A DNA stretch of 64,000 nt from Patescibacteria group bacterium (GCA_043807255.1 JAZDGD010000007.1:17069-81068), one strand, 5' to 3'; positions 1,822 through 59,288 are shown, counted from the stretch's first letter. Notes: generated by a model not told the origin, from the letters alone. Program-made: numbers and translations.

Positions 1822-1861
1822 AGTATGTAGGACATCGTATGTCCTACATAATGTCTTAAAC

Positions 1862-1894
1862 AAAAATGCCCTCGACTTCCGTCGGGGCATTTTT
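1862..1894. terminator. Bidirectional rho-independent terminator between the convergent gpmI and 1901..2158
   Basis: AAAAATGCCCTCGACTTCCGTCGGGGCATTTTT forms a GC hairpin flanked by an A-run on one side and a T-run on the other. Confidence 0.7.
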
Positions 1895-1900
1895 ATGATT

Positions 1901-2158
1901 TTATTTATCTCGATATTTTTTTCTTTTATCGAGATCTTTTTTAATAGCCTCGTTCACTTCCTCTTCTGACTTAAAATATCCTTCCGCGATTAATCCCTGT
2001 TTTGCCTCTTCAAATGCTTCCCGGGCCATCATGCCATGGTGACCAACACTTTCATCTGCCGTTTTTTTCCGATCCAATAAACTTTCAAATCTCATCCAAA
2101 ATTCCGGAGTTTCTCTGTCTTTTGATTCGATTCTTGATTCTTTGTTTTCTTTTCCCAT
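1901..2158 (-). CDS. hypothetical small charged protein (85 aa)
   Basis: ORF only. It is convergent with gpmI and shares the terminator above. Confidence 0.4.
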   Translation of the reverse strand: MGKENKESRIESKDRETPEFWMRFESLLDRKKTADESVGHHGMMAREAFEEAKQGLIAEGYFKSEEEVNEAIKKDLDKRKKYRDK

Positions 2159-2583
2159 AAAATTTTGTTACTTAAAATTTATTTTATTAATCCTCCTACT
2201 TTCCATTTTACCCCCCCCCAGCGGAAAGTCAAGCCCCATAACAAATTATGTAGGACGTCGCACGTCCCACATAATAATTGCCCTAAAAACATTTATGTCA
2301 TATTTGTCACGATCGTGAAAAATATTACATACATCGAAATAATAAAAACGACACCTTTCCACGATCGGACAAAAGTGTCACTTCTTAGAAATGTCAGAGG
2401 TAAGACCTCTGACATTTCTATCTTACGAGGCTAAGCCTCGTAAAGTCATATTCGGAGGTTCCACCTCCGAATTTTGTATCCTGCCATTAATGAGAATTTG
2501 TTTGTCACTGAGACAACTTCGCAGGCAAAATGCATGGTTTCGTCCCGACGAACGTGTCGACACATAAAATAAATCTGAGCGTC

Positions 2584-3171
2584 CTATTTCCGTTTATCAA
2601 TTATCGAATCGATTAAACCGTACTCTTTCGCTTCTTCGGATGACATATAATAATCACGGTCGCTGTCTTTTTCGATTTTATCTATTTTCTGACCAGTGTG
2701 TTTGGCAATGATTTTATTTAAGCGTTGCTTGGTTTTCATAATTTGTTTTGCAGAAATCTCAATATCTGATGCACGCCCCTCAACACCACTAACTGCGACC
2801 TGATGAATCATTACTTCTGAATTTGGCAAAGCAAATCTTTTTCCTTTTTTGCCGGCAGTTAAAACCACTGCTGCACCCGAGGCTGCTAAACCAATACAAA
2901 CTGTTGAAATATCACATTTCACAAATTGCATTGTGTCATAAATTGCCATAGTTGCCGTAACGCTTCCTCCAGGACTATTAATGTAAATCAAAATATCTCT
3001 CTTTGGGTCTTGGTTTTCCAAAAACAATAATTGTGCAATAACTGCATTTGCCGTATCGTCATCAATTGGACCGCCCAAAAAAATAATTCTGTCTTTTAAT
3101 AATCTTGAATATATGTCGTAGGCTCTCTCACCGTTTTGTGATTTTTCTATGACCGTTGGTATTAAATTCAT
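2584..3171 (-). CDS. clpP: ATP-dependent Clp protease proteolytic subunit
   Basis: Full-length match to the ClpP family ([15 protein letters not shown]). Confidence 0.92.
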
Positions 3172-4124
3172 AAAATTTCTGCTTCGCGCTCAATGAGCTC
3201 AAAGACTTTTTCATTAATAATTACACCTTCAGTATATTCTTTTAAAGCTGCCAAATCAATAGTTTTTTTAACTTTTTCCGCGTCTGGATAGCGCATTAAT
3301 TCTTGATTCATTTTTTCTTCAATCTCTTCAGTTGTAGGAATTATTTCTTCTTTGTCGGCGATTGCTTTAATGCATAATCCGATTTTTGCCCTTTTTTCTG
3401 CTTGCACCCTCCAACTGCTTTTTAACTCATCTAACGTTGATTTAATTTGCATTAAATAAGTTTCAAACTCTAATCCGAATTGAGTAATACTTAATTTAAA
3501 TTCATTAATCATATTTTCTAATTCCGTATCAACTAATTCTTTTGGTACTTCGATTTTAGAATCATTTGCAACTTGTTCAATTAATTCAATCCTTACCCTT
3601 TGCTTATTCATTAATTCCTTTTCTTGTTTTAAACCATCAATAACGCTTTTTTTAAATTCTTCTAAAGATTTAAACTTGCCCATAGATATTGCAAATTCAT
3701 CGTTCAATTCTGGAACTTGTCTTTCTTGAACAAGAATCATCTTTGCTTTAAAATCCAAGCCCTTGCCAGCAACCCTTTTGTCTGTCCAATCATCAGGAAC
3801 TTTTAAGGAAAATTCTTTTTCGTCTCCGGCTTTCATCCCTTCTAATTCTTTTTCAAATCCCGGTAAAAATTGTCCCTCACCTAAAATCAAAGGATGGTTT
3901 TTACTTTCACCGTTTTCAACCTTAACTCCACCGCACCTCACTTCGAAATCAATTTCAATGCGATTTCCTTTTTCTGCCGGCTTATTTATGGTTACGGTTT
4001 TTGCCCGAGAATTTTGAATATACTTTAAAGCACTTTCAATTTCTTTTTCTTCAACTTTCGAATCTTTTTTAGTTGCTTTAAGTTTTCTATAATTTGCCAA
4101 TTCGATTTTTATTTCATTAGTCAT
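3168..4124 (-). CDS. tig: trigger factor lacking the N-terminal ribosome-binding domain (FKBP-type PPIase plus C-terminal domain only)
   Basis: Collinear with E. coli Tig from about residue 115 onward (IDFEVR, [13 protein letters not shown], [16 protein letters not shown]). The start overlaps the nusA stop (ATGA), so there is no room for an N-terminal domain. Confidence 0.75.
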
Positions 4125-5800
4125 TTTATTTCTATTTCCTGAATTAATTTTTTAGTTGCCGGAAAAGTTAATTTTTCCATCGCTTCTTCTTTGGTCGCCC
4201 ATTCATATTTATCATGTTCAATAATTTCCTGTTTTAAAGAAATTATTTGCTCCATGTCGGCTTTAACCAAAAACGTATCCGCAATAACATAATTAATTCC
4301 ATCCGCTTGCCATTCTTCTTTCTTCCCTAGTTTTTTAATTACTTTAAATTTTTTAATTTGAGTTTCTTCTGCAATGCCTCTCTTTATCGTTTTTAATGGC
4401 GTTTCTCCCGGCTCAACGGTTTCTTTTAAAAATTCCCAACCATTCCATCTTAAAATTCTGTGAAGAATCAAAAAATACGGTTTATCATCTTTAACGTCGT
4501 ATATAATAGCTCTATACTTTTTTATTCCATCCCCGCCCCCGCCAACATCTGATGAAGTTGTGGCGGGTGGCGGGCCCGCCTGAATGCCCTCTGGGCTTTC
4601 GGCGAGCTTGTCGGCTTCTATCATTTTTTCACTCTTAACATCTATTTTCCAGCCCGTTAGTTTTGCGGCCAATCTTACGTTCTGTCCACGTTGTCCAATT
4701 GCTAAAGAAATTTGATCTTCGGGGACAATTACTGTTGCGCTTCTGTCTTTTTCTTCAGTTTTCACGCTAATAATTTTAGCAGGCGACAATGCATTGGCGA
4801 TATATTTCTCCATATTTTCATTCCACTCAATGATGTCAATTTTCTCTCCACCCAATTCAGCAATCACTGTTTGTACCCTGCTTCCTTTTTGTCCAACACA
4901 AGAACCAACTGGATCAACCCCTTGCTCTTCTGTAAAAACTGCAATCTTTGTTCTTGAGCCAGGCTCTCGAGCGATGGATTTTATTTGCACCGTTCCCGTT
5001 GAAATTTCTGGAACCTCAATAGAAAATAATCTGCTCACTAATTTTGGATAAGCGCGAGACAAAACAATATCAGCACCTTTTGAAGATTTTTCAACTTTCA
5101 AAATATAAACTCTCAAACGTTGACCGATAAAAAATCTTTCCCCGGGGATTTGCTCTTCGGCGTATAAAATTCCTGATGCCTTACCGATGTCCATAAAAAT
5201 ATTTCTGCCTTCAATCCTTTGTACTATCGCGCTCACGACTTCACCTTCTTTGTCTTTATACTCCGCAAACACAACCTCTCTTTCGGCTTCTCTTAATCTT
5301 TGAATAATAACTTGTTTTGCGGTTTGGGCAGCGATTCTTCCGAAATCGGTATGAGCCTCGAGTTTAGTTTGGATTTCATCTCCTGGCTTTGACCCTTTTT
5401 TAATTTTTTGTGCGTCATCAACCATCACATGTTTGAAGGGATTGAAACGAACTTTCTTGTTGCCTTCTGCATCAATTTCTTCGTCGTCCTCAAACTCTTC
5501 CCCGCCCCCACCAACATCTGATGAAGTTGTGGCGGGTGGCGGGCCCGCCTGAATGCCCTCTGGGCTTTCGGCGGGTTCTTCCTTTAACATACTTTCATCC
5601 ACAACCAAAAATACCTGGAAAACTTTTATTTCTCCAGTATTTAAATCGAACTTGACCTTAATATTCTGACCTTTCTTGCCATAGTCCTTCTTGTATGCAG
5701 CGGCAATCGCCATCTCAAGGGTTTCAATAATTTGTTCTTGAGAAATGCCTTTTTCTTCGGCAATTTGACTCATTGCTGATATAAATTGTTTTTGATCCAT
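4121..5800 (-). CDS. nusA: transcription factor NusA (NTD-S1-KH1-KH2) fused to a C-terminal NUDIX (MutT-like) domain. Contains two in-frame copies of a 76-bp GC-rich repeat
   Basis: Recognised parts are the NusA NTD (ISQIAEEKGIS, FGRIAAQTAKQVIIQRLREAERE), the S1 and two KH domains (IGQRGQNVRLAAKLTGWKIDV). The C-terminal 130 aa carry a Nudix box (WEFLKETVEPGETPLKTIKRGIAEETQI) that aligns position by position with the MutT box [30 protein letters not shown]. The peptide AESPEGIQAGPPPATTSSDVGGGG occurs twice. Confidence 0.85.
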   Translation of the reverse strand: MDQKQFISAMSQIAEEKGISQEQIIETLEMAIAAAYKKDYGKKGQNIKVKFDLNTGEIKVFQVFLVVDESMLKEEPAESPEGIQAGPPPATTSSDVGGGGEEFEDDEEIDAEGNKKVRFNPFKHVMVDDAQKIKKGSKPGDEIQTKLEAHTDFGRIAAQTAKQVIIQRLREAEREVVFAEYKDKEGEVVSAIVQRIEGRNIFMDIGKASGILYAEEQIPGERFFIGQRLRVYILKVEKSSKGADIVLSRAYPKLVSRLFSIEVPEISTGTVQIKSIAREPGSRTKIAVFTEEQGVDPVGSCVGQKGSRVQTVIAELGGEKIDIIEWNENMEKYIANALSPAKIISVKTEEKDRSATVIVPEDQISLAIGQRGQNVRLAAKLTGWKIDVKSEKMIEADKLAESPEGIQAGPPPATTSSDVGGGGDGIKKYRAIIYDVKDDKPYFLILHRILRWNGWEFLKETVEPGETPLKTIKRGIAEETQIKKFKVIKKLGKKEEWQADGINYVIADTFLVKADMEQIISLKQEIIEHDKYEWATKEEAMEKLTFPATKKLIQEIEIK

Positions 5801-5884: not shown

Positions 5885-5904
5885 CCCTTCGACTTCGCTC
5901 AGGG

Positions 5905-14118: not shown

Positions 14119-14298
14119 ATTTTTTTATTAATTTAATAAAATCTGGTGCTTGCACCGCGAAGCTCTGAGGTTTTCCGAAGAGCGAAGTGGTGGACTTAGG
14201 CAGAATCCCCGCCTGCAACGCCTTGCGTAGCAATGGCGGGCAGGGAACTCGCCGTCTCAGCAACCTGCCTACCGGCAGGCAGGCTGCCGTCTTGTTAT

Positions 14299-14369
14299 TG
14301 GACTTAGCGGGAATCGAACCCACGTTTCGTCAATGCGAATGACGCGTATTACCACTATACTATAAGCCC
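14299..14369 (-). tRNA. tRNA-Ala (anticodon CGC), no encoded CCA
   Basis: A cloverleaf was derived by hand. The acceptor stem is GGGCTTA/TAAGTCC with the G3:U70 Ala identity pair, the anticodon loop is TTCGCAT and the T-loop is TTCGATT. Confidence 0.85.
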
Positions 14370-18101: not shown

Positions 18102-19094
18102 ATGCTACTAAAAAGCAGGCGGAATTTTTATTTATCCAAAATTGAAATGCTTACGAACAAATTAACCCCATATTTACAAAAATTAACCAAAACTTGCCCA
18201 GCAATCAAGCGCCAATTTGTTTACTCAAAACAAGAAAATTTATCTAAAAATAAAGATAAAAAATCAACATTTATTGACCCATTAATGGAGGAGAAATATA
18301 CTGTTGTGCGTGGGTTGATTCACAAATATGATAATCGTGCCCTGATCTTATTAACCCTAAATTGTGCTGCCTATTGTAGATTTTGTACTAGACGCAGAAA
18401 GGTTTCTGATATAAAAAATGGCCTATTATCAGACGAGGACATAAACAATATTGTCGCTTACATTAAAAAACATTCTGAGATTAAAGAAATTATCCTTTCC
18501 GGCGGAGATCCGTTAACCGTGCCCGTTCTATTACAAAAATTATTATTAAAACTTTCTAAACTTTCGCAAATCAAAATTATTAGAATTGGTACTCGTTTGC
18601 CTGTCGCTGACCCTCAAAAAATAAATTCAAAACTAATTAATATTTTAAAAGTCATAAAAAATAAAACTGTATACATTTTAATTCATTTTGAGCATCCCAA
18701 AGAAATTACCAAACAAACAATTATTGCTGTAAACAAATTAAAACAAGTTTCAACAATGCTTTTATCTCAATCGGTATTTTTAAAAAATGTTAATGATTCA
18801 TTTGATACGCTCTATGAACTTTTTTCTCAGTTAATTGAAATTGAGGTTAAGCCATACTATTTATATCATTGTGATCCAGTTAAGGGCGCTGAGCATTTTA
18901 TTGTTGATTTCAAAAAAGAAATAAAAATTGTTACCGAATTACGAAAAGAATTAAGTGGATTAGCATTTCCAACATATATTATTGATGCACCCAACGGTGC
19001 AGGCAAAATTCCTGTACCCCTGGAATTCTGGAAATTCGATTCAGACAAATACAAAGATTTTAACGGCAAAATCTTACGAGGTTTAACCTCGTAA
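18102..19094 (+). CDS. KamA-family radical SAM protein (lysine 2,3-aminomutase / EpmB-like)
   Basis: CAAYCRFC (CxxxCxxC) and SGGDPL. The size matches EpmB. Confidence 0.75.
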   Translation: MLLKSRRNFYLSKIEMLTNKLTPYLQKLTKTCPAIKRQFVYSKQENLSKNKDKKSTFIDPLMEEKYTVVRGLIHKYDNRALILLTLNCAAYCRFCTRRRKVSDIKNGLLSDEDINNIVAYIKKHSEIKEIILSGGDPLTVPVLLQKLLLKLSKLSQIKIIRIGTRLPVADPQKINSKLINILKVIKNKTVYILIHFEHPKEITKQTIIAVNKLKQVSTMLLSQSVFLKNVNDSFDTLYELFSQLIEIEVKPYYLYHCDPVKGAEHFIVDFKKEIKIVTELRKELSGLAFPTYIIDAPNGAGKIPVPLEFWKFDSDKYKDFNGKILRGLTS

Positions 19095-19121
19095 GATTTT
19101 GCATTTAAGTTCGAATTCATA

Positions 19122-24474: not shown

Positions 24475-24479
24475 TATTG

Positions 24480-24552
24480 TCAGAGCGGAGAGACTTGCAC
24501 TCTCAGTTTCCGACTCCCGAAGCCGGCGTCTTAGCTGTTAGACCACGCCCTG
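24480..24552 (-). tRNA. tRNA-Pro (anticodon CGG), no encoded CCA
   Basis: Hand-folded cloverleaf. Acceptor CAGGGCG/CGCTCTG, anticodon loop TTCGGGA (G37), T-arm GAGAG-TGCAAGT-CTCTC. Confidence 0.75.
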
Positions 24553-28812: not shown

Positions 28813-30312
28813 TTATTTTATCCAATATTTTTCACGGATTTTTAGATCTTCTTCTTCCTTTTTTTCTTCGATTTTACCTTTGGCTAATTTGCGAAGAACT
28901 TCTAGGTTTTCTTCGTTTAATTCTAAAACTCTTTTTTCTAAATATTTCTTATTATTGTTCTTCGGCTCTTCAATTACTTCCGCCAACAAAACATCCAAAA
29001 TCGCACCTACTTTTGGACTGGGTTCGATTTTTAACAATTTCATTATATCCGTGCCATTAATTTTCAACATCTTTGCAGAAATCGGATCCTTGGAAATTTT
29101 TTCAATCATATACTCAATTGTTCTTAAACGATAGGGTTTTTCTTTCGGCCTTCCCATTCCCAATCTATCGGCAACTCTTAAATTAATCAAATCAACAATA
29201 TTTTCTTTGCCCACTCTTTTTAATAATCTTCTTGCGCCAGCATCAGTTAATTTTTCTGGGTCGGAAACAAACATATGATTTCTAACCAGCAAAACAACTT
29301 TATCAATAAATTTATTGGAGAATTTTAATCGTTTTAAAATTTTATCGACAAATTTCGCACCAACATAATCGTGATTATAAAAAGTAGAGTCGGGGCCTTC
29401 GCCTTGTTTGGTTTCTGGCTTACCAATATCATGGAATAAGGCCGCAACCTTTACTTCTAAATTAAAATCTTTCTTTGCTGCTTCATCCAACGCCCTTAAA
29501 GAGTGCTCATAAATATCATAAATATGGTGCTTGTTTTGGCTTACGCCAACACCCTTGTCGAGTTCTGGCAAAATGAATTTAAGTAAATTTGTTTGTCGCA
29601 ATAAATCAATTCCATTTGCTGCTTTTTTGGTTTGAAAAATTTTAATTAATTCGTCGTGAATTCTTTCATTGGAAATCATTTGAATTAATTCTGCATTTTT
29701 TTGAATCGCCTTAAAGGTTTTTTCCTCGATCGTAAAATCAAGGGTGCAGGCGAATCTTACCGCTCTTAGCATTCTTAGTGCGTCTTCATCGAATCTTTTA
29801 TTCGCATCGCCAACCGCACGAATTATTTTATTTTTTAAATCTTTCTGTCCATCGAAAAAATCTAATATTCGGACGTCCGATGTCCTACCATTCTTAATGT
29901 CGGGACATCGGACGTCCCCCATTTTTAACGCGAGTGCATTTACCGTAAAATCCCGCCTGGCAAGATCTTCTTCTAACTTTTTAGCAAAAGTTATTTCGTC
30001 AGGATGACGCTTGTCAGAATATTTTCCCTCTAAGCGAAAAGGCGTGATCTCGACAATTTTTAATGTTTCGTCTTTAGAATCAGTAATTACGCTTACTGTG
30101 CCAAATTGATTTTCATAAAAATTTTTAGGGAATAACTTTCTAATTTGTTCCGGTTTAGCATTAGTAGTAATGTCCCAATCGTTGGGCTTAATGTCTCTTC
30201 CTTCGACTTCGCTCAGGACGAGGTCGCGAACACAACCACCAACAGCATAAGCTTCGTAGTCATTCTTAATCAATTTTTCTAATATTAAATTAACTTCCTT
30301 GGGAATTGTCAT
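28813..30312 (-). CDS. cca: CCA-adding tRNA nucleotidyltransferase with an HD domain. Carries two in-frame palindromic-element insertions
   Basis: GGCVRD, RRDFTVNALA and HDIGKP. The inserted peptides are SEVEGRD and KMGDVRCPDIKNGRTSDVR. Confidence 0.88.
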   Translation of the reverse strand: MTIPKEVNLILEKLIKNDYEAYAVGGCVRDLVLSEVEGRDIKPNDWDITTNAKPEQIRKLFPKNFYENQFGTVSVITDSKDETLKIVEITPFRLEGKYSDKRHPDEITFAKKLEEDLARRDFTVNALALKMGDVRCPDIKNGRTSDVRILDFFDGQKDLKNKIIRAVGDANKRFDEDALRMLRAVRFACTLDFTIEEKTFKAIQKNAELIQMISNERIHDELIKIFQTKKAANGIDLLRQTNLLKFILPELDKGVGVSQNKHHIYDIYEHSLRALDEAAKKDFNLEVKVAALFHDIGKPETKQGEGPDSTFYNHDYVGAKFVDKILKRLKFSNKFIDKVVLLVRNHMFVSDPEKLTDAGARRLLKRVGKENIVDLINLRVADRLGMGRPKEKPYRLRTIEYMIEKISKDPISAKMLKINGTDIMKLLKIEPSPKVGAILDVLLAEVIEEPKNNNKKYLEKRVLELNEENLEVLRKLAKGKIEEKKEEEDLKIREKYWIK

Positions 30313-45828: not shown

Positions 45829-45863
45829 ATAGATGTACGGAGAACTGTTCTCCGTACATCTAT
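45829..45863. promoter_or_regulatory. perfect 16-bp inverted repeat with a 3-nt spacer (ATAGATGTACGGAGAA ctg TTCTCCGTACATCTAT) upstream of the small Cys-rich gene; putative operator
   Basis: Read directly from the sequence. Confidence 0.55.
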
Positions 45864-45873
45864 AATTAAATTA

Positions 45874-45902
45874 AAAATGTGGCGGGACAGGGTCCCGCCA
45901 CG
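45874..45902 (-). terminator. intrinsic terminator for 45918..46334 (GTGGCGGGACCCTGTCCCGCCAC plus a T-run on the minus strand)
   Basis: GC hairpin plus TTTTT. Confidence 0.6.
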
Positions 45903-47581: not shown

Positions 47582-49507
47582 ATGAGCGATATTTTAACTG
47601 ATTTGAATCCAAAACAGCAAGAAGCGGTAACCACGATTGATGGGCCGGTTTTGATATTGGCTGGGCCGGGTTCTGGCAAGACAAAAGTGCTTACTCACCG
47701 CTTAGCATACATGGTAAAATCAGGAATTTTGCCCCAAAACATCTTGGCGGTCACATTTACAAATAAGGCGGCAGGCGAGATGAAATCGCGAACAGCAAAG
47801 CTGCTCGACCATACCAGCTATCTACCTTTTATGGGAACCTTCCACGCATTTTGCTTAAAAACCTTGCGCAAAGAAATCCCCAAATTGGGCTACAGATCAA
47901 GTTTTGTAATTTATGACGAAGACGACCAATTGAGCTTGGTAAAAGACGTTATTAAGCGATTAGAAATTAACCAAGACCAGTTCTCTGCTAAAAGGGCCCT
48001 ACACACAATTTCTTCCCTAAAAAACGAAATTATTGATTACAAAGAATACGAAGATAATGCACAAGAATTTTTTGAGAAAATAATTGCTAAAATTTATAGA
48101 GGGTATCAAGAAGAACTAAAAAAGAACAATGCCCTGGACTTTGATGACTTAATTATGTTTATGGTTAAAATTTTTGAAGAATGGCCAGATGTCTTAGAAA
48201 GATATCAAGAACAATACAAATATATTATGGTTGATGAATATCAGGACACTGACCCATCGCAATACAAATTAATTAAATTATTATCGTCTAAATACAAAAA
48301 TATTTGCGTAGTGGGAGACGACGCACAATCGATTTATTCATTTAGAAATGCGGATTTCAGAAATATTTTGAATTTTGAAAAAGATTATCCGCAAGCAAAA
48401 GTTGTGACCCTAGACCAAAATTATCGATCAACACAAAATATTTTAGACGCTGCTTCAAAATTAATTTCCAAAAATGTTTATCAAAAACCGAAAAATCTTT
48501 GGACAGAGAATCCTTCTGGCCCCTTGATTGCAGTTGTGGGAACCTGGAACGAAAAAAGCGAAGCGGAATTCATTGTTAAAAAGATTGCCGAACTCTCACA
48601 ACAGGGATACAAATTAAGCGATTTTGCAATTTTCTACCGAACCAATGCCCAATCACGTGCAGTTGAAGAGGCGTTTATTAAAAACAACATCCCCTACAAA
48701 TTGGTGGGAGCGATTAGATTTTATCAAAGAAGGGAAATTAAAGATTTGATTGGATATTTAAAATATATTTCCAACGGCGATGAATTGAGTTTAAAAAGAA
48801 TTATTAACACTCCCACTCGAGGGGTTGGCAAAATTACAATTGATAAAATCTTACAAAATGGCATTGAAAAAATCGCTGAAGAAAAAAATGAAGTAGGGTT
48901 ATTCTATAAAATTATTCAAAAAGCAAAAGAACTCGCTCTAAAATCGCCATTATCAAAGCTTTTAAAATTTATTCTCAAAGAAACTGAATATCAGAATTAT
49001 CTTAAAAAAACTTATGGCGATAACGAACTGCAGGCCGGACTTTCTGAAGATGAGGCGCGATGGCAAAACGTTGAAGAGCTCGTCAGTGTTGCTGCCGAAT
49101 ATGATAAACTCCCTTCACCACAAGGATTAAATGATTTTTTGGAAAAAACTGCATTACTTTCTGATGCTGACGAAATTCAAAACAATCAAAATGTTGTACA
49201 TCTAATGACACTTCATACCGCCAAGGGGCTGGAATTTCCAGCAATTTTCATTATTGGTTGCGAAGAGGGAATTTTACCTCATTCGCGAAGCTTACTAAAT
49301 CCTTTAGACATTGAAGAAGAACGCAGACTATTTTATGTCGGCATAACCAGAAGTAAGGTTCATTTACATTTAATCGTTTCTCAACGCAGAACAAGCTGGG
49401 GATCGCAAGAAGCGAATCCGCCATCGAGATTTTTGTCAGAAATACCTGAACATCTAATTCAATACGAAGAATTCGAACCAGACATTAAAGGACTAATTGA
49501 TTTTTAA
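47582..49507 (+). CDS. pcrA: ATP-dependent DNA helicase PcrA/UvrD
   Basis: GPGSGKT, TFTNKAA, DEYQDT and the VTLDQNYRS motifs. Confidence 0.9.
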   Translation: MSDILTDLNPKQQEAVTTIDGPVLILAGPGSGKTKVLTHRLAYMVKSGILPQNILAVTFTNKAAGEMKSRTAKLLDHTSYLPFMGTFHAFCLKTLRKEIPKLGYRSSFVIYDEDDQLSLVKDVIKRLEINQDQFSAKRALHTISSLKNEIIDYKEYEDNAQEFFEKIIAKIYRGYQEELKKNNALDFDDLIMFMVKIFEEWPDVLERYQEQYKYIMVDEYQDTDPSQYKLIKLLSSKYKNICVVGDDAQSIYSFRNADFRNILNFEKDYPQAKVVTLDQNYRSTQNILDAASKLISKNVYQKPKNLWTENPSGPLIAVVGTWNEKSEAEFIVKKIAELSQQGYKLSDFAIFYRTNAQSRAVEEAFIKNNIPYKLVGAIRFYQRREIKDLIGYLKYISNGDELSLKRIINTPTRGVGKITIDKILQNGIEKIAEEKNEVGLFYKIIQKAKELALKSPLSKLLKFILKETEYQNYLKKTYGDNELQAGLSEDEARWQNVEELVSVAAEYDKLPSPQGLNDFLEKTALLSDADEIQNNQNVVHLMTLHTAKGLEFPAIFIIGCEEGILPHSRSLLNPLDIEEERRLFYVGITRSKVHLHLIVSQRRTSWGSQEANPPSRFLSEIPEHLIQYEEFEPDIKGLIDF

Positions 49508-50373
49508 TGATTAAAATTCAAGATATTTTAAACAGATACAATATCAAACCCAATAAATTTATGGGGCAGAATTTTTTGATTGACGAGAATGTTTTGAATA
49601 AAATTATTGAAACTGCAAACATTAAACCAAACGATATTATTTTGGAGGTTGGGCCCGGATTAGGAAATTTAACATTGGAACTAGCAAAAAGGGCAGAGCG
49701 AGTGATTGCGATTGAAAAAGATAGAGAATTGTGTGAAATATTAGAAAAAATTCTAAAAGATAACAACATAAAAAATGTCCAAATTATCAATGACGATATT
49801 TTAAAAATGGGAGACATCGCACGTCCCCATGTAGGACGTGCGATGTCCTACATGGTTGTGGCAAATATTCCGTACTATCTTACTTCGCCATTGATTAGAA
49901 TGTTTTTGGAAACAGAAAATAAACCAAGCGAAATAATTTTAATGATTCAAAAAGAGGTGGCTCAGCGCATCTGCGCTTCGCCACCCACTAAATCGCCAAA
50001 GGCGATCGGGCCCGAACTACGAAGTAGTTCTAGGGCAAAAATGTCCTTACTCGCCGTATCTGTGCAATTTTATGCTAAACCAGAGATAATTTCTTTTGTT
50101 TCTAAAAATAGTTTTTACCCTGTGCCAAAAGTGGATTCTTCAATCATCAAAATAGTGCCCTACAACACAAAGAATGTTGGACGTCCGACGTCCAACATTG
50201 ATACGGAAAAGTTTTTTAAATTGGTGAAAATGGGGTTTTCTGCGAAAAGAAAGATGCTAAAAAACAACATCCCTGAAATTAATTTTGAAAAATTAAATTT
50301 AAATCCAGGTATTCGTGCAGAGAGTTTAACGATCAATGATTGGATTAAAATTTATGAACAATTTAATCCCTAA
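49507..50373 (+). CDS. rsmA: 16S rRNA (adenine1518/1519-N6)-dimethyltransferase with three in-frame palindromic-element segments
   Basis: GQNFL, EVGPGLGNLT and NIPYY. The extra segments are KMGDIARPHVGRAMSYM, TKSPKAIGPELRSSS and NVGRPTSNID. Confidence 0.88.
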   Translation: MIKIQDILNRYNIKPNKFMGQNFLIDENVLNKIIETANIKPNDIILEVGPGLGNLTLELAKRAERVIAIEKDRELCEILEKILKDNNIKNVQIINDDILKMGDIARPHVGRAMSYMVVANIPYYLTSPLIRMFLETENKPSEIILMIQKEVAQRICASPPTKSPKAIGPELRSSSRAKMSLLAVSVQFYAKPEIISFVSKNSFYPVPKVDSSIIKIVPYNTKNVGRPTSNIDTEKFFKLVKMGFSAKRKMLKNNIPEINFEKLNLNPGIRAESLTINDWIKIYEQFNP

Positions 50374-51976
50374 CATTAAAAAAAATTTAAACTTCATATT
50401 ACCCATTACGAGCGGACTGTTGTTGATTTTGTTCCCTTTGTTCGATTTTAATCATCTGATTTGGTTTTCATTGATTCCATTATTTTTATTTATATTTTCA
50501 AAATCAACAACAACAAAGAGGGCATTTTTTGGTGGGTTAGTCACTGGCACAATTTTCGGTGGCGGATTGCTTTTGTGGTTATTTGACACTGTGCCATTTG
50601 AATTCTTGGATGTTAACACTGAGAAAGAAGTTGTTGTGGTATTTTTCGTCTTTCTCCTTCTGTGGCTCATTCACATTCTATTCGTTGGATTATTTATTGG
50701 TGCGTTCTCATGGACAATTAAAAAATTATTGTCTCTGAAAATCAATACAATTTGGCCAATATTCTTAATCCCAGGAATTTGGATAATTTTTGAATATTTA
50801 CGAACTTGGGGATTTAATATCTTGTGGCTGGGGAAAGAAACCCTATGGAGTCCCTATTGGACGTGGGGGAATTTAGCGTATTTTTTGCACAACAATTCTC
50901 CTCTCTCGCAAATAGCGGACATCGGCGGAATTTATTTAATTAGCTTCTTAATTGTTTTAATTAATACTTTATTGTTTTTAATGATCTATAAAATTAAACA
51001 AAAAACCATATCTCTTAAATATTTCGCATCTATAATAATTTTTATCATTTCAATTTTTTCGATTTGGAAATGTTATGGATTTTATAAATTGAACATTCCC
51101 GAGAACGGCAAAATAATTAAATTAGCAATCCTACAAACCAATTTTGCTTCTGGAAACGAACTGAACGCCTATAATCGGCTTGATATTTTTAATATCGTAA
51201 AAAAAATATTTCAAGAACCAGAAAACATTAACCAAAATCCAGACATCATTATTGAGCCCGAAGGATTTAGCATTACAGCAATGGCTGGAAGCAATGAAAT
51301 TGCTAAATATATTCTCAAAGATTTTTGGCGACCAGGACAAATTTTTATTGAGAATCAAAAATTTACGGACAAAAACGGAAAAACAACATCTCGATTGTTC
51401 TATTTTGATTTAGACAAAAAAGAACCAATCGCTGTTTATGACAAGACATTTTTAATGCCCAATGGAGATTATTTGCCATATATTACAAAACTTTTTCTTA
51501 ATTTATATTCTTTCAAAACCGACTTGAAAGAAAAATTCTTTTCTCGTGGAAATTTTTCTTACCCAGCCAAAACATTAAAGGGCAATGTCGGCGGAACAAT
51601 ATGCACTGGATTTATGTCTCCAAACGAAAATAGACGAATGACTAATAACGGAGCCGAGATATTAATGTCGTCTTCTAGCGATGCACCATTTCATGGCTCT
51701 GCAACCCTCCTAAATCAAATTATGGCGATGACAAAATTCCGAGCCATAGAAAATAATCGTTATTTTGCGCAAGCAACCAATGTGGGGTATTCTTTTCTGC
51801 TCAATTCCAAAGGAGAAGTTATTGACAAGTCCCCAACCATAGATAATCGCATAATATTTGTAGATGCCAAACTTTTAACAGACAAATCCTTATATACAAA
51901 ATATGGTGATTGGATAATTTATTTAACAATTTTGATATTAACAATCTTTTTGTTTTTAAAATTTTATAAAAAATGA
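50336..51976 (+). CDS. lnt: apolipoprotein N-acyltransferase-like (N-terminal polytopic membrane domain plus C-N hydrolase domain)
   Basis: TM topology plus nitrilase-superfamily region. Confidence 0.55.
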   Translation: MIGLKFMNNLIPNIKKNLNFILPITSGLLLILFPLFDFNHLIWFSLIPLFLFIFSKSTTTKRAFFGGLVTGTIFGGGLLLWLFDTVPFEFLDVNTEKEVVVVFFVFLLLWLIHILFVGLFIGAFSWTIKKLLSLKINTIWPIFLIPGIWIIFEYLRTWGFNILWLGKETLWSPYWTWGNLAYFLHNNSPLSQIADIGGIYLISFLIVLINTLLFLMIYKIKQKTISLKYFASIIIFIISIFSIWKCYGFYKLNIPENGKIIKLAILQTNFASGNELNAYNRLDIFNIVKKIFQEPENINQNPDIIIEPEGFSITAMAGSNEIAKYILKDFWRPGQIFIENQKFTDKNGKTTSRLFYFDLDKKEPIAVYDKTFLMPNGDYLPYITKLFLNLYSFKTDLKEKFFSRGNFSYPAKTLKGNVGGTICTGFMSPNENRRMTNNGAEILMSSSSDAPFHGSATLLNQIMAMTKFRAIENNRYFAQATNVGYSFLLNSKGEVIDKSPTIDNRIIFVDAKLLTDKSLYTKYGDWIIYLTILILTIFLFLKFYKK

Positions 51977-52027
51977 TATAATTAATTTAACATAGCTTGA
52001 CATTTAAATTTTTGGTATAATAAGAGT

Positions 52028-53038
52028 ATGAAAATCAAAAAATCACACTTAACTATAATCCCGTTAGCATTAATTTTTGCTATTGGGTTAATTTTATTTA
52101 TCGGTGCTTATTCGAAAAGAGATGCTTTCTCCAGCTATAATTTATGGGGAGCAAGACAAACAATTGTTGAATCCCAAAATCTTGATACTGACAACGACGG
52201 ACTTAAGGACTGGGAAGAAGATTTATACAAAACCGACAGGTTGAATCCCGACACAGACAATGATGGATACTTAGACGGCGAAGAAATTAATTCTGGGCAC
52301 AATCCATTAATCAAAGCACCGGGAGACGAAGAAATGTTTTATCCGCTTCCCTTAGGAGATAAATACAATATTACAAATAAAATTTTGAATAGCGAATTTA
52401 TTGACTCGATATTAGAATCGTATGTTGCTCAAAAAAACGAATATATTAATGATCACCAAATCACATCACCGGACGAATATGGTCAGACAATAGACAAAAC
52501 AACGGTTCAAACAATGTTCACAAGAGCAATCGCCGAAGGATATCCATTACTAATTGAAAGCGCTGACCAAATATTACAAAAAATGCCAGAAATCTTTAAC
52601 ATACAGATTTCAGACGACAATATTTTTGTATCCGATGACAATAGTACAGAAAACGTTAAATCCTATATTGAAAAAACCTCGTCTATCTTAAAATCAAAAA
52701 CATTTTTATTGCAACAACAAAGTTTTTCTGCTGTCACTTCCGCATTTAAAGAGGGTGATTTTTCAAAAATAGACACGGTAATCAAAGACAACGCAGGCAA
52801 AATTGACACTTTAAAAGAAATTGTTGTGCCATCTTCCTGGAAAGAAATTCATAAAGAGGGGTTGGGGTTAATTTTAACCATCCGAAACATCTTTATATCG
52901 TTCAGAGACCTTCCCAATGATCCCCTAAAAGCATATGCCGCCTTAAATGAATTTGAAAAATTTTCCGACAGATGGAATGGCTTTATAGAAAAAGCGATTA
53001 ATTTAGCGAAACAACAAAACATAGAAATTAATTTATAA
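52028..53038 (+). CDS. secreted or anchored protein with thrombospondin-type-3-like Ca-binding repeats (DTDNDG)
   Basis: DTDNDGLKDWEED and DTDNDGYLDGEE. Confidence 0.5.
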   Translation: MKIKKSHLTIIPLALIFAIGLILFIGAYSKRDAFSSYNLWGARQTIVESQNLDTDNDGLKDWEEDLYKTDRLNPDTDNDGYLDGEEINSGHNPLIKAPGDEEMFYPLPLGDKYNITNKILNSEFIDSILESYVAQKNEYINDHQITSPDEYGQTIDKTTVQTMFTRAIAEGYPLLIESADQILQKMPEIFNIQISDDNIFVSDDNSTENVKSYIEKTSSILKSKTFLLQQQSFSAVTSAFKEGDFSKIDTVIKDNAGKIDTLKEIVVPSSWKEIHKEGLGLILTIRNIFISFRDLPNDPLKAYAALNEFEKFSDRWNGFIEKAINLAKQQNIEINL

Positions 53039-53043
53039 AAATT

Positions 53044-55980
53044 ATGCTCAACAAATTTCAAAAAATAATAATTTCTTCCATTATATTTTGTTTAATTTTT
53101 GGTTTTGTTTTTAATATATTTCTTACCAGACCAAAAATAGTACAAGCAACTGACGGAGGTGCTGGTTTTTTAAATTTAATGAAAGAGACAGTACTTGACG
53201 CTGTCGGTTGGGGAGTTACGGATATGGTATTGAAACCATTAAAACAAAAAATACAGGATTGGGGGATGGGCAAAACAAGCGATAGCAACACACCATTCTT
53301 TGTTATGGATTGGAAAAAGTTTTGGGACGACGCATTAGATATTGCTTCAGCAAAATTTATAGAAGAACTGGGAGCGACAAAGCTTTGCGGACCATTACAA
53401 ATAAGCATTGGTCAAAATCCAACATTTACTACATATTATAGTGACAAACCACAATACAAAAACTATTCTGCTTGCACGCTTGATAATGTTGTGGATAATG
53501 TTGAGTCGTTTTTTAAAAATCCATCAATTTCTGTTTATGGCTGGGACGCATGGACAGCATTAACTCAACCGAATAATAATTTTTTGGGTGCGTATCTGAT
53601 GGCAGCGCAAAGACAAGATGAATTGGCACAGGAAGAACTTGATGCCAAAAACAAAGAAACCGCAGTAAGCGAGGGGACTAAAAATGAAACAACAACTAAG
53701 GCAACGGACACTGATACTTGTAATAAAAAATGTGATACTGATTTCCCAACCACAACTCCTGGCAACGACATAAAATGGAATGATTGTCTCGACAAGTGCG
53801 AGACAACAACAAAAGGCGTTCCAACACAAAGCGGGGTTAAGAATCTCGGAGCAACAATCAAAGAGAATATGGACAAGGCCCTGGGAGCAGATATGAGCAG
53901 AATCATTAGTGCAGACGAAATCAGTGAACTTGTGGGAGTGTTTTTTAGCGCTGTTTTAAACAAAGCTATTGATGGATTAGGACTAGTCCCATCTTCTGCT
54001 AACCAAACAACCCAAGAACAGAATCGAAACGAAAATAAAGATCTTTACGGATACGGAACATCGGTAGGGCAAACAATTACCCCTGAAATGCAAAAAGACA
54101 TCCGCACTACTATTTTAAATGGCACACTTAAGGGAGTACAAATGATATCGAGAGCAACAGCAAAATGTAAAGATGAAAAAACGATGCTTACTGAATTAGA
54201 TTTCAATAAAAACATTACTGACATGTATTCGGCACAATTAGAAGCATTGTATGTCGGAACAACCGGAATTGCCTTAAAGCCCGACTTTACAGTATTAGAC
54301 TCTCCATTCGCTCCGTTTTCTCTATACGGTTATCGTTGGGGAGAAATTCCTGTAAACAAGATACCAGCTAAGTGCAAAAAGATGATCACTCAGTCAAGCG
54401 GAGGATTAACCGCTTCCTGCAAAGATATTGTTAGCGGTCTTGAGCCAAATTACAGTAAACAATGCACTCAATGTATTTATGATGATAGCGAATTAAATTG
54501 TCCACCTGCACCATATCCGCCATTTTCAAAACCATCCGTATTAACAAAAGCAGTGGTTACTGCCAAACAAGAATTTTATAGTGGTTGTATGAACTGGTAT
54601 GAAGTAACAACCAATAGATGTAAAGAATGTGTGAAAAAGACAGATGAAAAATGCGATCAGGAAGATGGCGCTCAAAAACAAGCATGCATTGAAAGCGTCT
54701 GCAGTAATTACGAAGACCTGAAACCACATGTTGTCTCTACAATAAGCAGTGGCATTGATTTCCATAGTAAGTGTTTGCTTGAAGAAACAAAAACATCTTG
54801 TTTCACCTGCCTTAAAGAATATTTTATGCCTGCGTCATACTGCGATGATATGAGTGCATTTACTGCGCGCGCATTAATAAAATATCCTGGCGTGGTATTG
54901 ATGGGTGACGCCAGAACCAGTGCATATTTTATAGGGAGATACGATTCAACGTTTGCCGATGCATTTGAGGGTGGCACAAAATGTAATAACGATCGAGACG
55001 CAAAGAAAGCAATAGACGTAAGTTTGATTTGTCAAATTATGCCCGACTTTGAAGACAACGGCATAAAGGTCTGTAAACAATATTGTATGGGGCACGGTAT
55101 GACTGAAGCAGAATTAAACGATATTGTGGACAATCGACCAACAAATGAAGATTGTAACAATCAAAAATTAAACATCGGCGGAAGTATAAATGTTTGGAAT
55201 ACTGTTAGCAATGGGAATTTTCAACAATTAAGTAAATGTTGCGCAGCAACAAATACAACAGATCTAAAGAGATACCAAACTTGTATTGGGGGATCAAAAC
55301 CATTGGTAGATGTTCCCCCTGTGTCCCCTTGCACGTTTGCTAAGCCAGTCAATCAAGAACCAGAATGTTATTGTAATGACGGCGAAAGACCGTTGGGATG
55401 GGCTAAGGCAAAAGTTTTTCCAGAATATACCAATGAATCGGATATAAGTTTTTGTACAGATTTCGAATTTCAATCACCTGGCACAAAACGATTAAGAATA
55501 TATACTGACAGCACTCCTGGCGGAGCGGTCGTTTATATCGGCAAAGACAGCTGTACGTATAATGGTACATACAAATTACAAGAACCAACTTCTACTGCTT
55601 GCCCGCCAAGCAACCCATTATTTATGGCCGAGACTTCTTTTGGAACGAATTCACAAGAATTTTATTATAACTTATCAGACACAGGCACGTTGCATGGCGG
55701 AGTATTTAATAATGACTTAACCGACACAAAAGCGACCACAATGCACGTATGCGCTCCCTGTGACCCATCAGATACAGGATATCCCAACTATGGAACAAGC
55801 TTGAATCAATGTTCGGGCAAATTAAGTAGCACTTCTGGAAGCGAAGGGTCTTATGTCCCACCAATCATGCCTGGGGACTGTTCATATACTCCACCAGGAG
55901 GAATGCCATCGTGCCCGAAAGATAAATACAATAGATGCATCCCGCCCCAAGATGATGATCCGATGTGTGAATGCAGATAA
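53044..55980 (+). CDS. large (978 aa) Cys-rich secreted or surface protein, hypothetical
   Basis: N-terminal TM or signal; many Cys. Confidence 0.45.
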   Translation: MLNKFQKIIISSIIFCLIFGFVFNIFLTRPKIVQATDGGAGFLNLMKETVLDAVGWGVTDMVLKPLKQKIQDWGMGKTSDSNTPFFVMDWKKFWDDALDIASAKFIEELGATKLCGPLQISIGQNPTFTTYYSDKPQYKNYSACTLDNVVDNVESFFKNPSISVYGWDAWTALTQPNNNFLGAYLMAAQRQDELAQEELDAKNKETAVSEGTKNETTTKATDTDTCNKKCDTDFPTTTPGNDIKWNDCLDKCETTTKGVPTQSGVKNLGATIKENMDKALGADMSRIISADEISELVGVFFSAVLNKAIDGLGLVPSSANQTTQEQNRNENKDLYGYGTSVGQTITPEMQKDIRTTILNGTLKGVQMISRATAKCKDEKTMLTELDFNKNITDMYSAQLEALYVGTTGIALKPDFTVLDSPFAPFSLYGYRWGEIPVNKIPAKCKKMITQSSGGLTASCKDIVSGLEPNYSKQCTQCIYDDSELNCPPAPYPPFSKPSVLTKAVVTAKQEFYSGCMNWYEVTTNRCKECVKKTDEKCDQEDGAQKQACIESVCSNYEDLKPHVVSTISSGIDFHSKCLLEETKTSCFTCLKEYFMPASYCDDMSAFTARALIKYPGVVLMGDARTSAYFIGRYDSTFADAFEGGTKCNNDRDAKKAIDVSLICQIMPDFEDNGIKVCKQYCMGHGMTEAELNDIVDNRPTNEDCNNQKLNIGGSINVWNTVSNGNFQQLSKCCAATNTTDLKRYQTCIGGSKPLVDVPPVSPCTFAKPVNQEPECYCNDGERPLGWAKAKVFPEYTNESDISFCTDFEFQSPGTKRLRIYTDSTPGGAVVYIGKDSCTYNGTYKLQEPTSTACPPSNPLFMAETSFGTNSQEFYYNLSDTGTLHGGVFNNDLTDTKATTMHVCAPCDPSDTGYPNYGTSLNQCSGKLSSTSGSEGSYVPPIMPGDCSYTPPGGMPSCPKDKYNRCIPPQDDDPMCECR

Positions 55981-56007
55981 AATACAAATATTGAAAAATA
56001 AAAAAAC

Positions 56008-58164: not shown

Positions 58165-58186
58165 TTTGTATTTAAAAATAATCTAG

Positions 58187-58600
58187 ATGCAATTTCAAGT
58201 ACCACAATTTATTGATATTGAGGACAAGGTTATTGGTCCCATGACAATCAAACAATTCCTGTATTTATTAACATCAGGAGTAACAATATTTATTATTTAT
58301 AAGATATTAAATATTGTTGCCACGATAATTTTAGCGATACCAATTGCCGGAATCGGAATTGCTCTCGCCTTCGTAAGGGTTAGCAACCAGCCATTTGTTA
58401 ATTTTATTAAAAACTTTATGGGCTTTATCAAAAAACCCGATTTCTACGTTTGGAAAAAACCGATTGGCAAAAACAATCTTCCCGAACAAACAGAAGAACG
58501 CGTCGAAATCATAAAGAAAATGCCAGCAAAGACCAAATTAAACCAAGAAACAAAAGATAATTTGCAGGATATGAGTTGGAAAGTAGAAATTGAAAAATAA
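58187..58600 (+). CDS. PrgI-family (VirB3-like) small membrane protein
   Basis: MQFQVPQFIDIEDKVIGPMTIKQF followed by two TM segments. Confidence 0.6.
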   Translation: MQFQVPQFIDIEDKVIGPMTIKQFLYLLTSGVTIFIIYKILNIVATIILAIPIAGIGIALAFVRVSNQPFVNFIKNFMGFIKKPDFYVWKKPIGKNNLPEQTEERVEIIKKMPAKTKLNQETKDNLQDMSWKVEIEK

Positions 58601-59243
58601 TAATTCTATGCCCACAAACACAAAACTTCCGAAGAACGCCAGCGCGGTGCAAAAATTTGTTGAAATCCAGGAAATCAAAAATGGATTAGCAATAATGAAA
58701 GACAACAGCATCAGATCTGTCTGTGCTTGTTCATCTATAAATTTTGATTTATTAAGCCAAACCGAACAAGAAGCTGTTATTAATCGTTTTCAAGAATTTT
58801 TGAATTCCATTGACTTCCCCCTGCAAATCATCGTTGCCTCCCGTCATTTTCAAGTTGAAGGGTATTTAAATCAAATTCGCGAATTAGAAAAAGTCCAAAC
58901 CAATGAATTGTTAAAAATCCAGACCAATGAATATATCAATTTCGTCGATAGCTTTGTGGAATTTGCAAACATAATGAATAAATCATTCTATGTAATCGTA
59001 CCGTTTAATATTGTTGAAACAAAAGATGAAGGATTTATGACAAGAATAAAGAATATTGTTAGTTCCAGTAAGCCAAAAAAAACTAGATTCGAACCAGAAA
59101 AACTAAGTCAGTATAAAGCACAATTAGATCAAAGAATTAATTTGGTCGCTCAAGGACTTCAGGCGTTAGGAATAAAAACCATTCCCTTAAATGATGAACA
59201 GCTAACGCAGTTATATTTCGAGTTTTATAATATCGAAAAGTAA
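58590..59243 (+). CDS. VirB4/TrbE-like N-terminal domain, encoded separately from the ATPase domain
   Basis: Same reading frame as 59289..61067; separated from it by TAA and TGA stops. Confidence 0.45.
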   Translation: MKNNNSMPTNTKLPKNASAVQKFVEIQEIKNGLAIMKDNSIRSVCACSSINFDLLSQTEQEAVINRFQEFLNSIDFPLQIIVASRHFQVEGYLNQIRELEKVQTNELLKIQTNEYINFVDSFVEFANIMNKSFYVIVPFNIVETKDEGFMTRIKNIVSSSKPKKTRFEPEKLSQYKAQLDQRINLVAQGLQALGIKTIPLNDEQLTQLYFEFYNIEK

Positions 59244-59288
59244 TCATCCGCAATCCGCTGATTAGCATTAAATTCGCATATTCGCATT

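Follow-up and report, generated by a model that had tools for sequence, protein, structure and literature searches.

Dispersed 25-nt palindromes between and within genes of Patescibacteria are probably REP-like elements of a system around a RAYT-like gene

Introduction

A 64,000-nt stretch of DNA from a Patescibacteria group bacterium (GCA_043807255.1, JAZDGD010000007.1:17069-81068), called the window below, carries a family of GC-rich 25-nt palindromes (Family A) that lie between genes and in frame within two housekeeping genes, rsmA and cca. An initial annotation of the window, made from its sequence, had noted these palindromes and compared them to Rickettsia palindromic elements (RPEs). 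Here we describe the palindromes of the window, their counterparts in other genomes, and a gene that related palindromes bracket in relatives. This gene encodes a putative distant member of the Y1/HUH transposases and resembles the transposases associated with repetitive extragenic palindromes (REPs), known as REP-associated tyrosine transposases (RAYTs). REP/RAYT systems are regarded as extragenic and as occurring mainly in Proteobacteria. In the library searched, no paper was found linking REP/RAYT to the candidate phyla radiation (CPR)/Patescibacteria. What are these palindromes, and how might they have come to lie inside genes?

Results

Palindromic units in the window

The 64-kb stretch derives from a Patescibacteria metagenome-assembled genome (MAG) of about 35% GC and is itself low in GC (~0.32-0.41 per 2-kb step). 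It holds seven units of the family, comprising four full 25-nt palindromes and three partial or degenerate ones, with the consensus ATGTNGGACRT-NNN-AYGTCCNACAT. Two units are intergenic, three lie in rsmA and two in cca, that is, five of seven inside genes. The initial statement that one GC-rich palindrome family occupies both non-coding and coding DNA, in frame in the latter, is borne out.

The first full palindrome, ATGTAGGACATCGTATGTCCTACAT (1825-1849), forms a perfect stem of 11-12 bp with a 3-nt loop (DNA hairpin of -10.3 kcal/mol, z -7.9). It starts 3 nt past the stop codon of the phosphoglycerate mutase gene iPGM (238-1821), and a separate terminator-like hairpin follows downstream at 1870-1887. 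The second, ATGTAGGACGTCGCACGTCCCACAT (2248-2272), has a single stem mismatch (-9.9 kcal/mol, z -6.8) and lies in a 425-bp spacer whose neighbours are an 85-aa open reading frame (ORF; 1901-2158, minus strand) and clpP (2584-3171, minus strand). Both intergenic copies are terminator-like by score, on the minus strand. They had been called near-identical; both palindromes are real, but the wording was too generous because the two differ at 4 of 25 positions, and the sequence that had been quoted for the family (..GGACGTCG...CGACGTCC..) is found literally at neither site.

The host gene rsmA (49507-50373, plus strand) encodes a 16S rRNA dimethyltransferase. Its ORF is intact (288 aa; Pfam RrnaAD over the full length, E = 2e-51), and an identical protein is encoded on a 98.6-kb contig of a Patescibacteria MAG at NCBI. 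All of its units are on the plus strand. Site 1 is the full palindrome ATGTAGGACGTGCGATGTCCTACAT (49829-49853), which encodes VGRAMSYM in phase p1; site 2 is the full palindrome ATGTTGGACGTCCGACGTCCAACAT (50174-50198; -12.4 kcal/mol), which encodes (N)VGRPTSNI, also in p1. A degenerate unit, ATGGGAGACATCGCACGTCCCCAT (49807-49830), with one mismatch in its core, encodes MGDIARPH in p0 and overlaps site 1 by 2 nt. The other host gene, cca (28813-30312, minus strand), belongs to the CCA-adding enzyme/poly(A) polymerase family and is likewise intact (499 aa; Pfam PolyA_pol, PolyA_pol_RNAbd and HD; PDB alignment). Its unit 1 (29864-29892, minus strand) has the core GGACGTCCGATGTCC at 29871-29885 between degenerate flanks and encodes ..NGRTSDVRI.. 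in p2; the inverted partner, unit 2 (29896-29923, minus strand), has the core GGACATCGGACGTCC at 29903-29917 and encodes MGDVRCPDI in p0. Jointly, the two form a hairpin with a 16-bp stem (-20.2 kcal/mol, z -7.4), and the doublet as a whole encodes MGDVRCPDIKNGRTSDVRI. Every intragenic unit of the window is in frame and free of stop codons. The initial annotation had placed related in-frame palindromes in both genes, which is confirmed, but some of its coordinates were inexact, that in cca (29888-29938) by ~20 nt.

These units are a true repeat and far exceed chance. ATGTNGGACRTNNNAYGTCCNACAT, with up to three mismatches, has four matches in the window versus 0.00 in 100 shuffles; the core GGACRTNNNAYGTCC, with at most one mismatch, has seven versus 0.16 expected from shuffles; and GGACGTCC has three versus 0.21 expected. 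A whole-genome copy number no higher than chance had been named as grounds for rejecting the family; in the window the number is far higher. As single-stranded DNA, the window sites are strong hairpins, with folding energies from -10 to -20 kcal/mol and z-scores between -6.5 and -7.9. The 25-nt unit itself, with a stem of 11-12 bp, a 3-nt loop, -10 to -12 kcal/mol and z ~-7, has the size and hairpin of a REP.

Coding copies compared with orthologs

RsmA orthologs were aligned, 27 at first and then 120. At site 2 the palindrome-encoded peptide VG(R/H)xxS(Y/H/N)I is present in 17 of 120 orthologs, and the others have a shorter segment of the K-Q-I-P-E-I type. Its presence is scattered over the tree, with four discordant sister pairs (P0021/P0073, P0012/P0044, P0011/P0028 and P0013/P0049). 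At site 1 a REP-type peptide occurs in merely 5 of 120 orthologs. The DNA of five RsmA orthologs shows that the peptide is encoded by a palindrome with compensatory variants, for example ATGTAGGACGTGCGACGTCCTACAT, ATGTGGGACGTGCGACGTCCCACAT and ATGTGGGACATACGATGTCCCACAT, and one rsmA site retains perfect palindromes across orthologs of only 60-70% identity. Furthermore, the in-frame rsmA copy of one relative (L004) is identical at 25 of 25 positions to the intergenic copy of the window at 1825-1849.

In cca, the doublet corresponds to a clean 14-residue gap in the solved CCA-adding enzyme 6ibp, within the well-aligned head domain. As in RPEs, the frame stays open through all units, which appear in alignment as insertions relative to homologs. 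The coding copies are thus not ordinary conserved codons, the other objection that had been foreseen, since presence in rsmA is patchy and the cca doublet is a 14-aa insertion.

Other inserts were seen in rsmA. Further palindrome-looking peptides occupy the same two RsmA loops in P0103, P0077/P0094, P0114/P0120 and P0030/P0059 (for example RGQTSRPTGGLTSPD, RQFGVLVSRQFRE and RMNANLEPNERE), and the two loops appear to be general hot spots of palindromic insertion. The window gene also has a third in-frame GC-rich insertion (49959-50035), encoding TKSPKAIGPELRSSSRA and containing the mini-hairpins ATCGCCAAAGGCGAT and GAACTACGAAGTAGTTC; it is missing from most orthologs, and P0086 and P0092 hold unrelated inserts at the same point.

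Distribution across genomes

Species-representative genomes (596 Gb) were scanned with the pattern ATGTNGGACRTN{3,5}AYGTCCNACAT, for which ~2 chance matches were estimated; this gave at least 117 loci, almost all in Patescibacteria. The search of relatives proposed in the initial annotation thus extends the family well beyond the window. Statements about individual copies below refer to the 133 strict 25-mers among the scan matches listed. The labels of the matches listed include Paceibacterota and Kaiser-, Nomura-, Staskawicz-, Parcu- and 'Saccharibacteria' MAGs, the loci span 0.33 to 0.66 in GC content, and single MAGs hold at least 5-8 strict copies each. A few matches are listed under Omnitrophota, Planctomycetia, Chloroflexota, Cyclobacteriaceae, Marivirga, Leucobacter and Janthinobacterium. 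The 'Chloroflexota' locus (L086), which has the typical Patescibacteria RAYT synteny described below, may be mis-binned, and the 26-27-nt matches under non-Patescibacteria labels may be unrelated. A phage origin was ruled out, as the pattern had 0 matches in 2.9 million viral contigs.

Two stem pairs that the pattern leaves free are nonetheless complementary, positions 5/21 in 125 of the 133 copies (as A-T, T-A, G-C or C-G) and positions 10/16 in 132. Copies differ on average at 1.34 positions within a genome versus 3.87 between genomes (permutation 0/2000), and many MAGs have a single dominant variant, loop included. Among fully paired copies, bases 3-6 read GTAG in 58, GTTG in 33, GTGG in 28 and GTCG in 6, each paired with CNAC of the other arm. 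Most copies are singletons. A partner within 70 nt is present for 21 copies (16%), at a spacer of exactly 3 nt in 15 of the 21; the arrangements in cca and at rsmA site 1 of the window are of this doublet type. In the flanks, positions +/-1 to 4 show complementarity at about double the expected rate, with C/A favoured on the left and G/T on the right; a fixed target-site motif, which the initial annotation had proposed to look for, was not found in the flanks of the 133 copies. Taken together, the family behaves as a dispersed repeat and is probably mobile.

Position and reading phase inside genes

More than half of the copies (78 of 133, ~59%) are located 25 or more codons inside ORFs that are 150 codons or longer, so the family is not mainly extragenic, as REPs are expected to be. 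The reading-frame bias that had been suggested for checking is strong: these 78 deep copies fall 65 in p1, 8 in p0 and 5 in p2. Counted per host-gene cluster, the figures are 31 for p1, 7 for p0 and 5 for p2 across 36 clusters. The host genes among the matches listed include HolB-like genes (in 13 genomes), PheT, Tgt and Dus. In p1 the palindrome encodes V-G-(R/H)-x-(T/M)-S-(Y/H/N)-(I/M), and its 27-nt form, (C/A)ATGT..ACAT(G/T), makes up nine whole codons, (H/N/D/Y)-V-G-(R/H)-x-(T/M)-S-(Y/H/N/D)-(I/M). This phase is the only one that reads alike on both strands; the GTAG variant gives a TAG stop in p0.

A RAYT-like gene with cognate palindromes

In a set of loci with three copies each, the palindromes bracket an ORF of ~225 aa that, judged by its sequence, is a putative distant relative of Y1/HUH transposases. 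The geometry is regular. One palindrome precedes the ATG by ~40-50 nt, another follows the stop codon by 6-20 nt, and a third lies in frame at codons 51-58, where it encodes VGRTTSYI. For the palindromes of the window and of seven three-copy loci, Rfam reported no RNA family; an interpretation of the three evenly spaced copies as parts of an rRNA or intron was ruled out, there being no Rfam match.

The best NCBIfam match of the ORF is REP_Tyr_transpos (NF047646), and Pfam Y1_Tnp (PF01797) matches it at E = 0.007. The catalytic motifs are present: H77-x-H79 (HUH), Y136 and N140 (Y-x3-N) are invariant in 11 and in 30 sequences. In E. coli TnpA-REP the corresponding residues are Y115/N119, as cited in PMC6006769, an arrangement that Y136-x3-N140 matches. 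An AF2 model of the protein (pLDDT 66.8, pTM 0.66) has the palindrome-encoded residues 40-61 disordered. Its predicted fold has as the top Foldseek match in the PDB 4er8_A, the E. coli RAYT with a REP hairpin (E = 4.2e-5, probability 1.0), and the model next resembles the IS608, ISDra2 and IS200 TnpA proteins. Among PDB sequences, a profile search retrieved 2xm3 (E = 0.008) and 4er8 (E = 0.36); a single-sequence search against the PDB gave no match. The family is large: at E <= 1e-3 it numbers 4,574 proteins, and most of these go by the name 'hypothetical protein' or 'putative transposase'. In 13 loci its synteny is conserved, as L25-RAYT-aldolase-PfkB or GAPDH-RAYT. Such fixed synteny would suit a vertically inherited RAYT better than an insertion sequence (cf. 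PMC5581495).

Because the first loci had been chosen through the palindrome, 80 RAYT-like homologs were then taken from metagenome contigs by protein similarity alone and searched for any 25-nt ATG(N8)(N3)(N8')CAT palindrome, perfect or with one mismatch. Such a palindrome is present upstream in 44 of 79 cases, internally (+135 to +160 nt) in 43 of 80, and within ~20 nt of the stop codon in 41 of 72, and ~55% of the 80 genes have the three-palindrome arrangement under this strict definition. Several apparent negatives have the same arrangement with palindromes that are 27 nt long or end in ATAT. The stem variants number more than 35, TAGGACGT, TAGGACCT, AAAGACCT, TTGGATTT and AGCGATTT among them, and the copies within a locus agree with one another. 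For example, locus L126 has a different palindrome in the same geometry, with the trio ATGAACGACCTnnnAGGTCGTTCAT and two further copies of that variant nearby. That gene and palindromes form one system is best supported by this covariation of enzyme lineage with hairpin. Cognate copies flanking the RAYT gene, a hallmark by which REPs are recognised, are thus found in relatives of the window genome.

Some loci are more complex. At some RAYT-like loci the flanking palindromes are of more than one type: L111 (7041-7845) has ATGTAGGGTTTACGAAACCCTACAT upstream and internally, with ATGGCCGACATCCGATGTCGGCCAT and a GGAC-type copy downstream, and L016 (2772-3507) has ATGAACGACCT.. upstream and internally, with a GGAC-type copy downstream. 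In addition, two metagenome contigs each carry two RAYT-like paralogs, Ga0172379_10000441 (L173 and L188) and Ga0172379_10003461 (L146 and L181); of each pair, palindromes are recognisable by the criteria used at one paralog but not at the other.

Other palindromes and features of the window

Further palindromes were seen near the intergenic copies. ATGTCAGAGGTAAGACCTCTGACAT at 2391-2415 (extended stem 2386-2420) is a perfect 25-nt ATG(N8)(N3)(N8')CAT palindrome with a different core; it shares its architecture with Family A and with the variant palindromes that flank RAYT-like genes elsewhere, and may be a second REP type of this genome. Next to it are TTACGAGGCTAAGCCTCGTAA at 2423-2443, a hairpin related to CTTACGAGGTTTAACCTCGTAAG at 19073-19095, and a terminator-like hairpin with a T-run, ATTCGGAGGTTCCACCTCCGAAT, at 2450-2472. 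At 45833-45859 (stem 45829-45863) lies a 27-nt palindrome with ATGT..ACAT ends, ATGTACGGAGAACTGTTCTCCGTACAT, followed 20 nt later by a GC-rich hairpin, GTGGCGGGACAGGGTCCCGCCAC (45879-45901), both in an apparent short spacer.

Other GC-rich segments also recur. The 17-mer CTTCGACTTCGCTCAGG occurs twice, between genes at 5887-5903 and in cca at 30201-30217, where it encodes six residues, SEVEGR, that are missing from 6ibp; it represents a second GC-rich family in coding and non-coding DNA. A 75-nt GC-rich stretch in the 3' part of iPGM (1656-1730), which encodes QAPRPTSQDEVVAGGGWGMPQGM and contains the hairpin CGACTTCGCAAGACGAAGTCG, looks like another palindromic insertion. A GC-rich segment of ~45 nt, TGAAGTTGTGGCGGGTGGCGGGCCCGCCTGAATGCCCTCTGGGCT, is present at 4526-4597 and 5522-5578, ~1 kb apart in one ORF (4121-5800, minus strand). 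The GC-rich intergenic block at 14199-14295 holds CTGCCTACCGGCAGGCAGG and adjoins tRNA-Ala (14299-14369); the inserts LPAGRQG, PASRQGG and AYRQAGQ of RsmA orthologs look like translations of a palindrome of this type, which suggests another widespread CPR palindrome family.

Among the remaining genes, ARAGORN places a tRNA-Pro(CGG) at 24479-24552 that the Rfam tRNA model does not report at its gathering threshold. Downstream of rsmA, a conserved block (50336-61067), judged by its synteny with the gene tables of L001-L003 and L007, includes PrgI-like, TraC-like and VirB4/TraG-like genes, a type IV secretion-like cluster. Between rsmA and this block, lnt is present in the window, L001 and L007 and absent in L002 and L003.

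Discussion

We consider it probable that the palindromes are REP-like elements of a Patescibacteria-wide system organised around the RAYT-like (Y1/HUH) gene. How might such a system work? On the model of IS200/IS605 TnpA and of E. coli TnpA-REP, the RAYT-like enzyme may recognise the palindrome as a hairpin on single-stranded DNA, cut beside it and rejoin it elsewhere, which would seed new copies. Cleavage, transposition and the single-stranded DNA route are inferred, as would be an enzyme still active in this genome. Enzyme and palindrome would co-evolve in each lineage, so that copies within one genome would stay alike. Because non-coding DNA is scarce in patescibacterial genomes, many copies would land in genes, and those that survive there would sit in tolerant surface loops, mostly in the strand-symmetric, stop-free phase. 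REPs are typically found directly after a stop codon, and the window copy at 1825-1849 fits this habit.

The closest known system is REP/REPIN-RAYT, as in E. coli (YafM/TnpA-REP, 4ER8) and Pseudomonas (PMC2817692, PMC3116915, PMC5581495, PMC6006769). The likeness includes a short, GC-rich repeat (20-40 nt) that forms a hairpin and is scattered over the chromosome, a GT[AG]G-type tetranucleotide on the 5' side in the commonest variants, and what appears to be a single Y1/HUH gene at a fixed chromosomal position with cognate palindromes on both sides. It extends to homogeneity within a genome with divergence between lineages, to some inverted doublets, and to one copy just past a stop codon. The differences are also clear. 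Here most copies are intragenic, with a strong bias to a single phase; GTNG is within the stem and the element is fully symmetric, whereas the REP hallmark is an unpaired GTAG/GTGG 0-2 nt 5' of the hairpin foot (PMC6006769, PMC3733652). The 25-nt ATG..CAT architecture is kept across many Patescibacteria lineages instead of being species-specific, and the RAYT-like gene holds a third cognate copy in frame within itself. Furthermore, the protein, at ~225 aa, has a C-terminal extension and scores under the cut-off of the curated RAYT model, and the copies are mostly singletons, the less common doublets having a typical spacer of 3 nt.

Intragenic palindromes also have precedents, namely RPE-1, the short RPE-4/RPE-6, which are CGTC-type REPs, and the GTAG REPs of Opitutus terrae, all from PMC3733652. 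As described there, these are in-frame palindromes in housekeeping genes (tRNA synthetases, tRNA-modifying, replication/repair) that add short peptide segments, two of them in some genes. However, their intragenic copies are a minority, and neither a phase bias nor a RAYT-internal copy is described in the text consulted. These precedents are moreover unrelated in sequence, and RPE-1 is far longer (>100 bp, in Rickettsia) than the 25-27 nt found in Patescibacteria. The resemblance to RPEs drawn in the initial annotation therefore holds for the outcome, in-frame insertion, but not for the unit, which is only 25-27 nt long and tied to a Y1/HUH gene. The comparison is fair so long as it is taken as no more than an analogy, in-frame palindromes being documented both as intragenic REPs and as RPEs of Rickettsia (PMC3733652). 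With IS200/IS605 elements (IS608, ISDra2) and derived palindrome-associated elements the system shares the Y1/HUH fold and hairpins around the transposase gene. The seamless single-strand 'peel and paste' chemistry that would be expected by analogy with IS200/IS605 would suit in-frame survival. Unlike in those elements, the gene stands in conserved housekeeping synteny, does not behave as a multi-copy mobile unit and has no tnpB, and the flanking hairpins are identical perfect palindromes, not distinct left and right ends.

Several findings weigh against a REP-like system. The family scores of the RAYT-like ORF are below cut-offs (28.6-50.3 bits versus 80 for NF047646, 16.9 versus 23 for Pfam Y1_Tnp), and confidence in its structure model is moderate. 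There is no RAYT-like gene within the 64-kb window, and ~30-45% of RAYT-like loci are without a recognisable trio under the definitions used. The GTNG 'tag' is base-paired within the stem, not unpaired, and other variants (ATGAACGACCT..) are without GTNG. The four full copies of the window differ from one another at 2-4 positions by hand count and therefore look old; they may be relics. In rsmA, the length difference between filled and empty alleles is +3 to +7 aa and not a constant +8 or +9, and at the DNA level there was no clean empty/filled site pair to compare because the nearest RsmA ortholog among 5.8 billion proteins is only 69% identical. From alleles of such variable length, and with no clean pair, the target site and insertion mechanism are not readable.

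Some of these features would suit palindromes that are domesticated, immobile host sites and that, like the RAYT-like protein recognising them, have a cellular role in mRNA 3'-end stabilisation or termination, regulation or DNA structure, the palindromic form being kept by selection and the intragenic copies being ancient and maintained. The fixed, housekeeping-like synteny of the RAYT-like gene would agree with this, as would the copy 3 nt past a stop codon, the terminator-like scores of both intergenic copies on the minus strand, the persistence of perfect palindromes at one rsmA site in orthologs 60-70% identical, and the heterogeneity of the window copies; host roles for REPs are discussed in PMC3733652. 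However, patchy sister orthologs together with genome-specific, homogenised variants require repeated copying or replacement, and a terminator or regulatory role leaves the copies in 36 housekeeping gene families unexplained. We regard such domestication as unlikely; it also overlaps with a REP-like system instead of excluding it.

A second alternative is an autonomous, RPE-like selfish element that spreads by recombination or gene conversion and has no dedicated transposase. It draws on the resemblance of in-frame insertions in essential genes to RPEs and on the lack of a transposase gene from the window, but is very improbable given a unit of only 25-27 nt, the tight covarying link to a Y1/HUH gene in dozens of independent loci, and a predicted fold of that gene product that best matches the RAYT-REP complex 4ER8. 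Formation of each palindrome on the spot and not as a copy of one element, through template-switch or hairpin-templated mutation or else through chance and codon bias, would account for palindromes that often run past the core, as the ~2x complementarity of flanks +/-1 to 4 indicates, and for filled and empty alleles without a constant length difference, but is scarcely credible and essentially refuted by one 25-nt sequence at at least 117 loci versus ~2 estimated by chance, by four copies in the window versus 0.00 expected, and by a variant common to the copies of one genome and to its RAYT-flanking copies.

A REP-like system around the RAYT-like gene is thus the reading we favour. A more specific version of it, which we put forward tentatively and are slightly inclined to doubt, is an ancient, vertically inherited RAYT-like/REP-like system of Patescibacteria, with co-evolving 25-nt ATG(N8)(N3)(N8')CAT palindromes in dozens of essential genes, in one preferred phase, where they would add a recurrent loop of 8-9 residues, VG(R/H)x(T/M)S(Y/H/N)(I/M), to the proteins, and a RAYT gene that always keeps an in-frame cognate copy. 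If true, this would be the first mainly intragenic REP system, and the hairpins or the RAYT-internal copy could have a function, such as autoregulation or replication-linked processing, beyond mere tolerance. A REP/RAYT-like system with most copies inside essential genes would extend across a large, poorly understood radiation of minimal genomes. It would account for a class of unusual insertions in proteins of the CPR, often with the annotation 'hypothetical' or the look of assembly noise, and would provide a simple sequence rule to find such insertions, which would be natural markers of insertion-tolerant loops. Moreover, the >35 enzyme/hairpin pairs would serve as a covariation data set on how Y1 transposases read hairpins.

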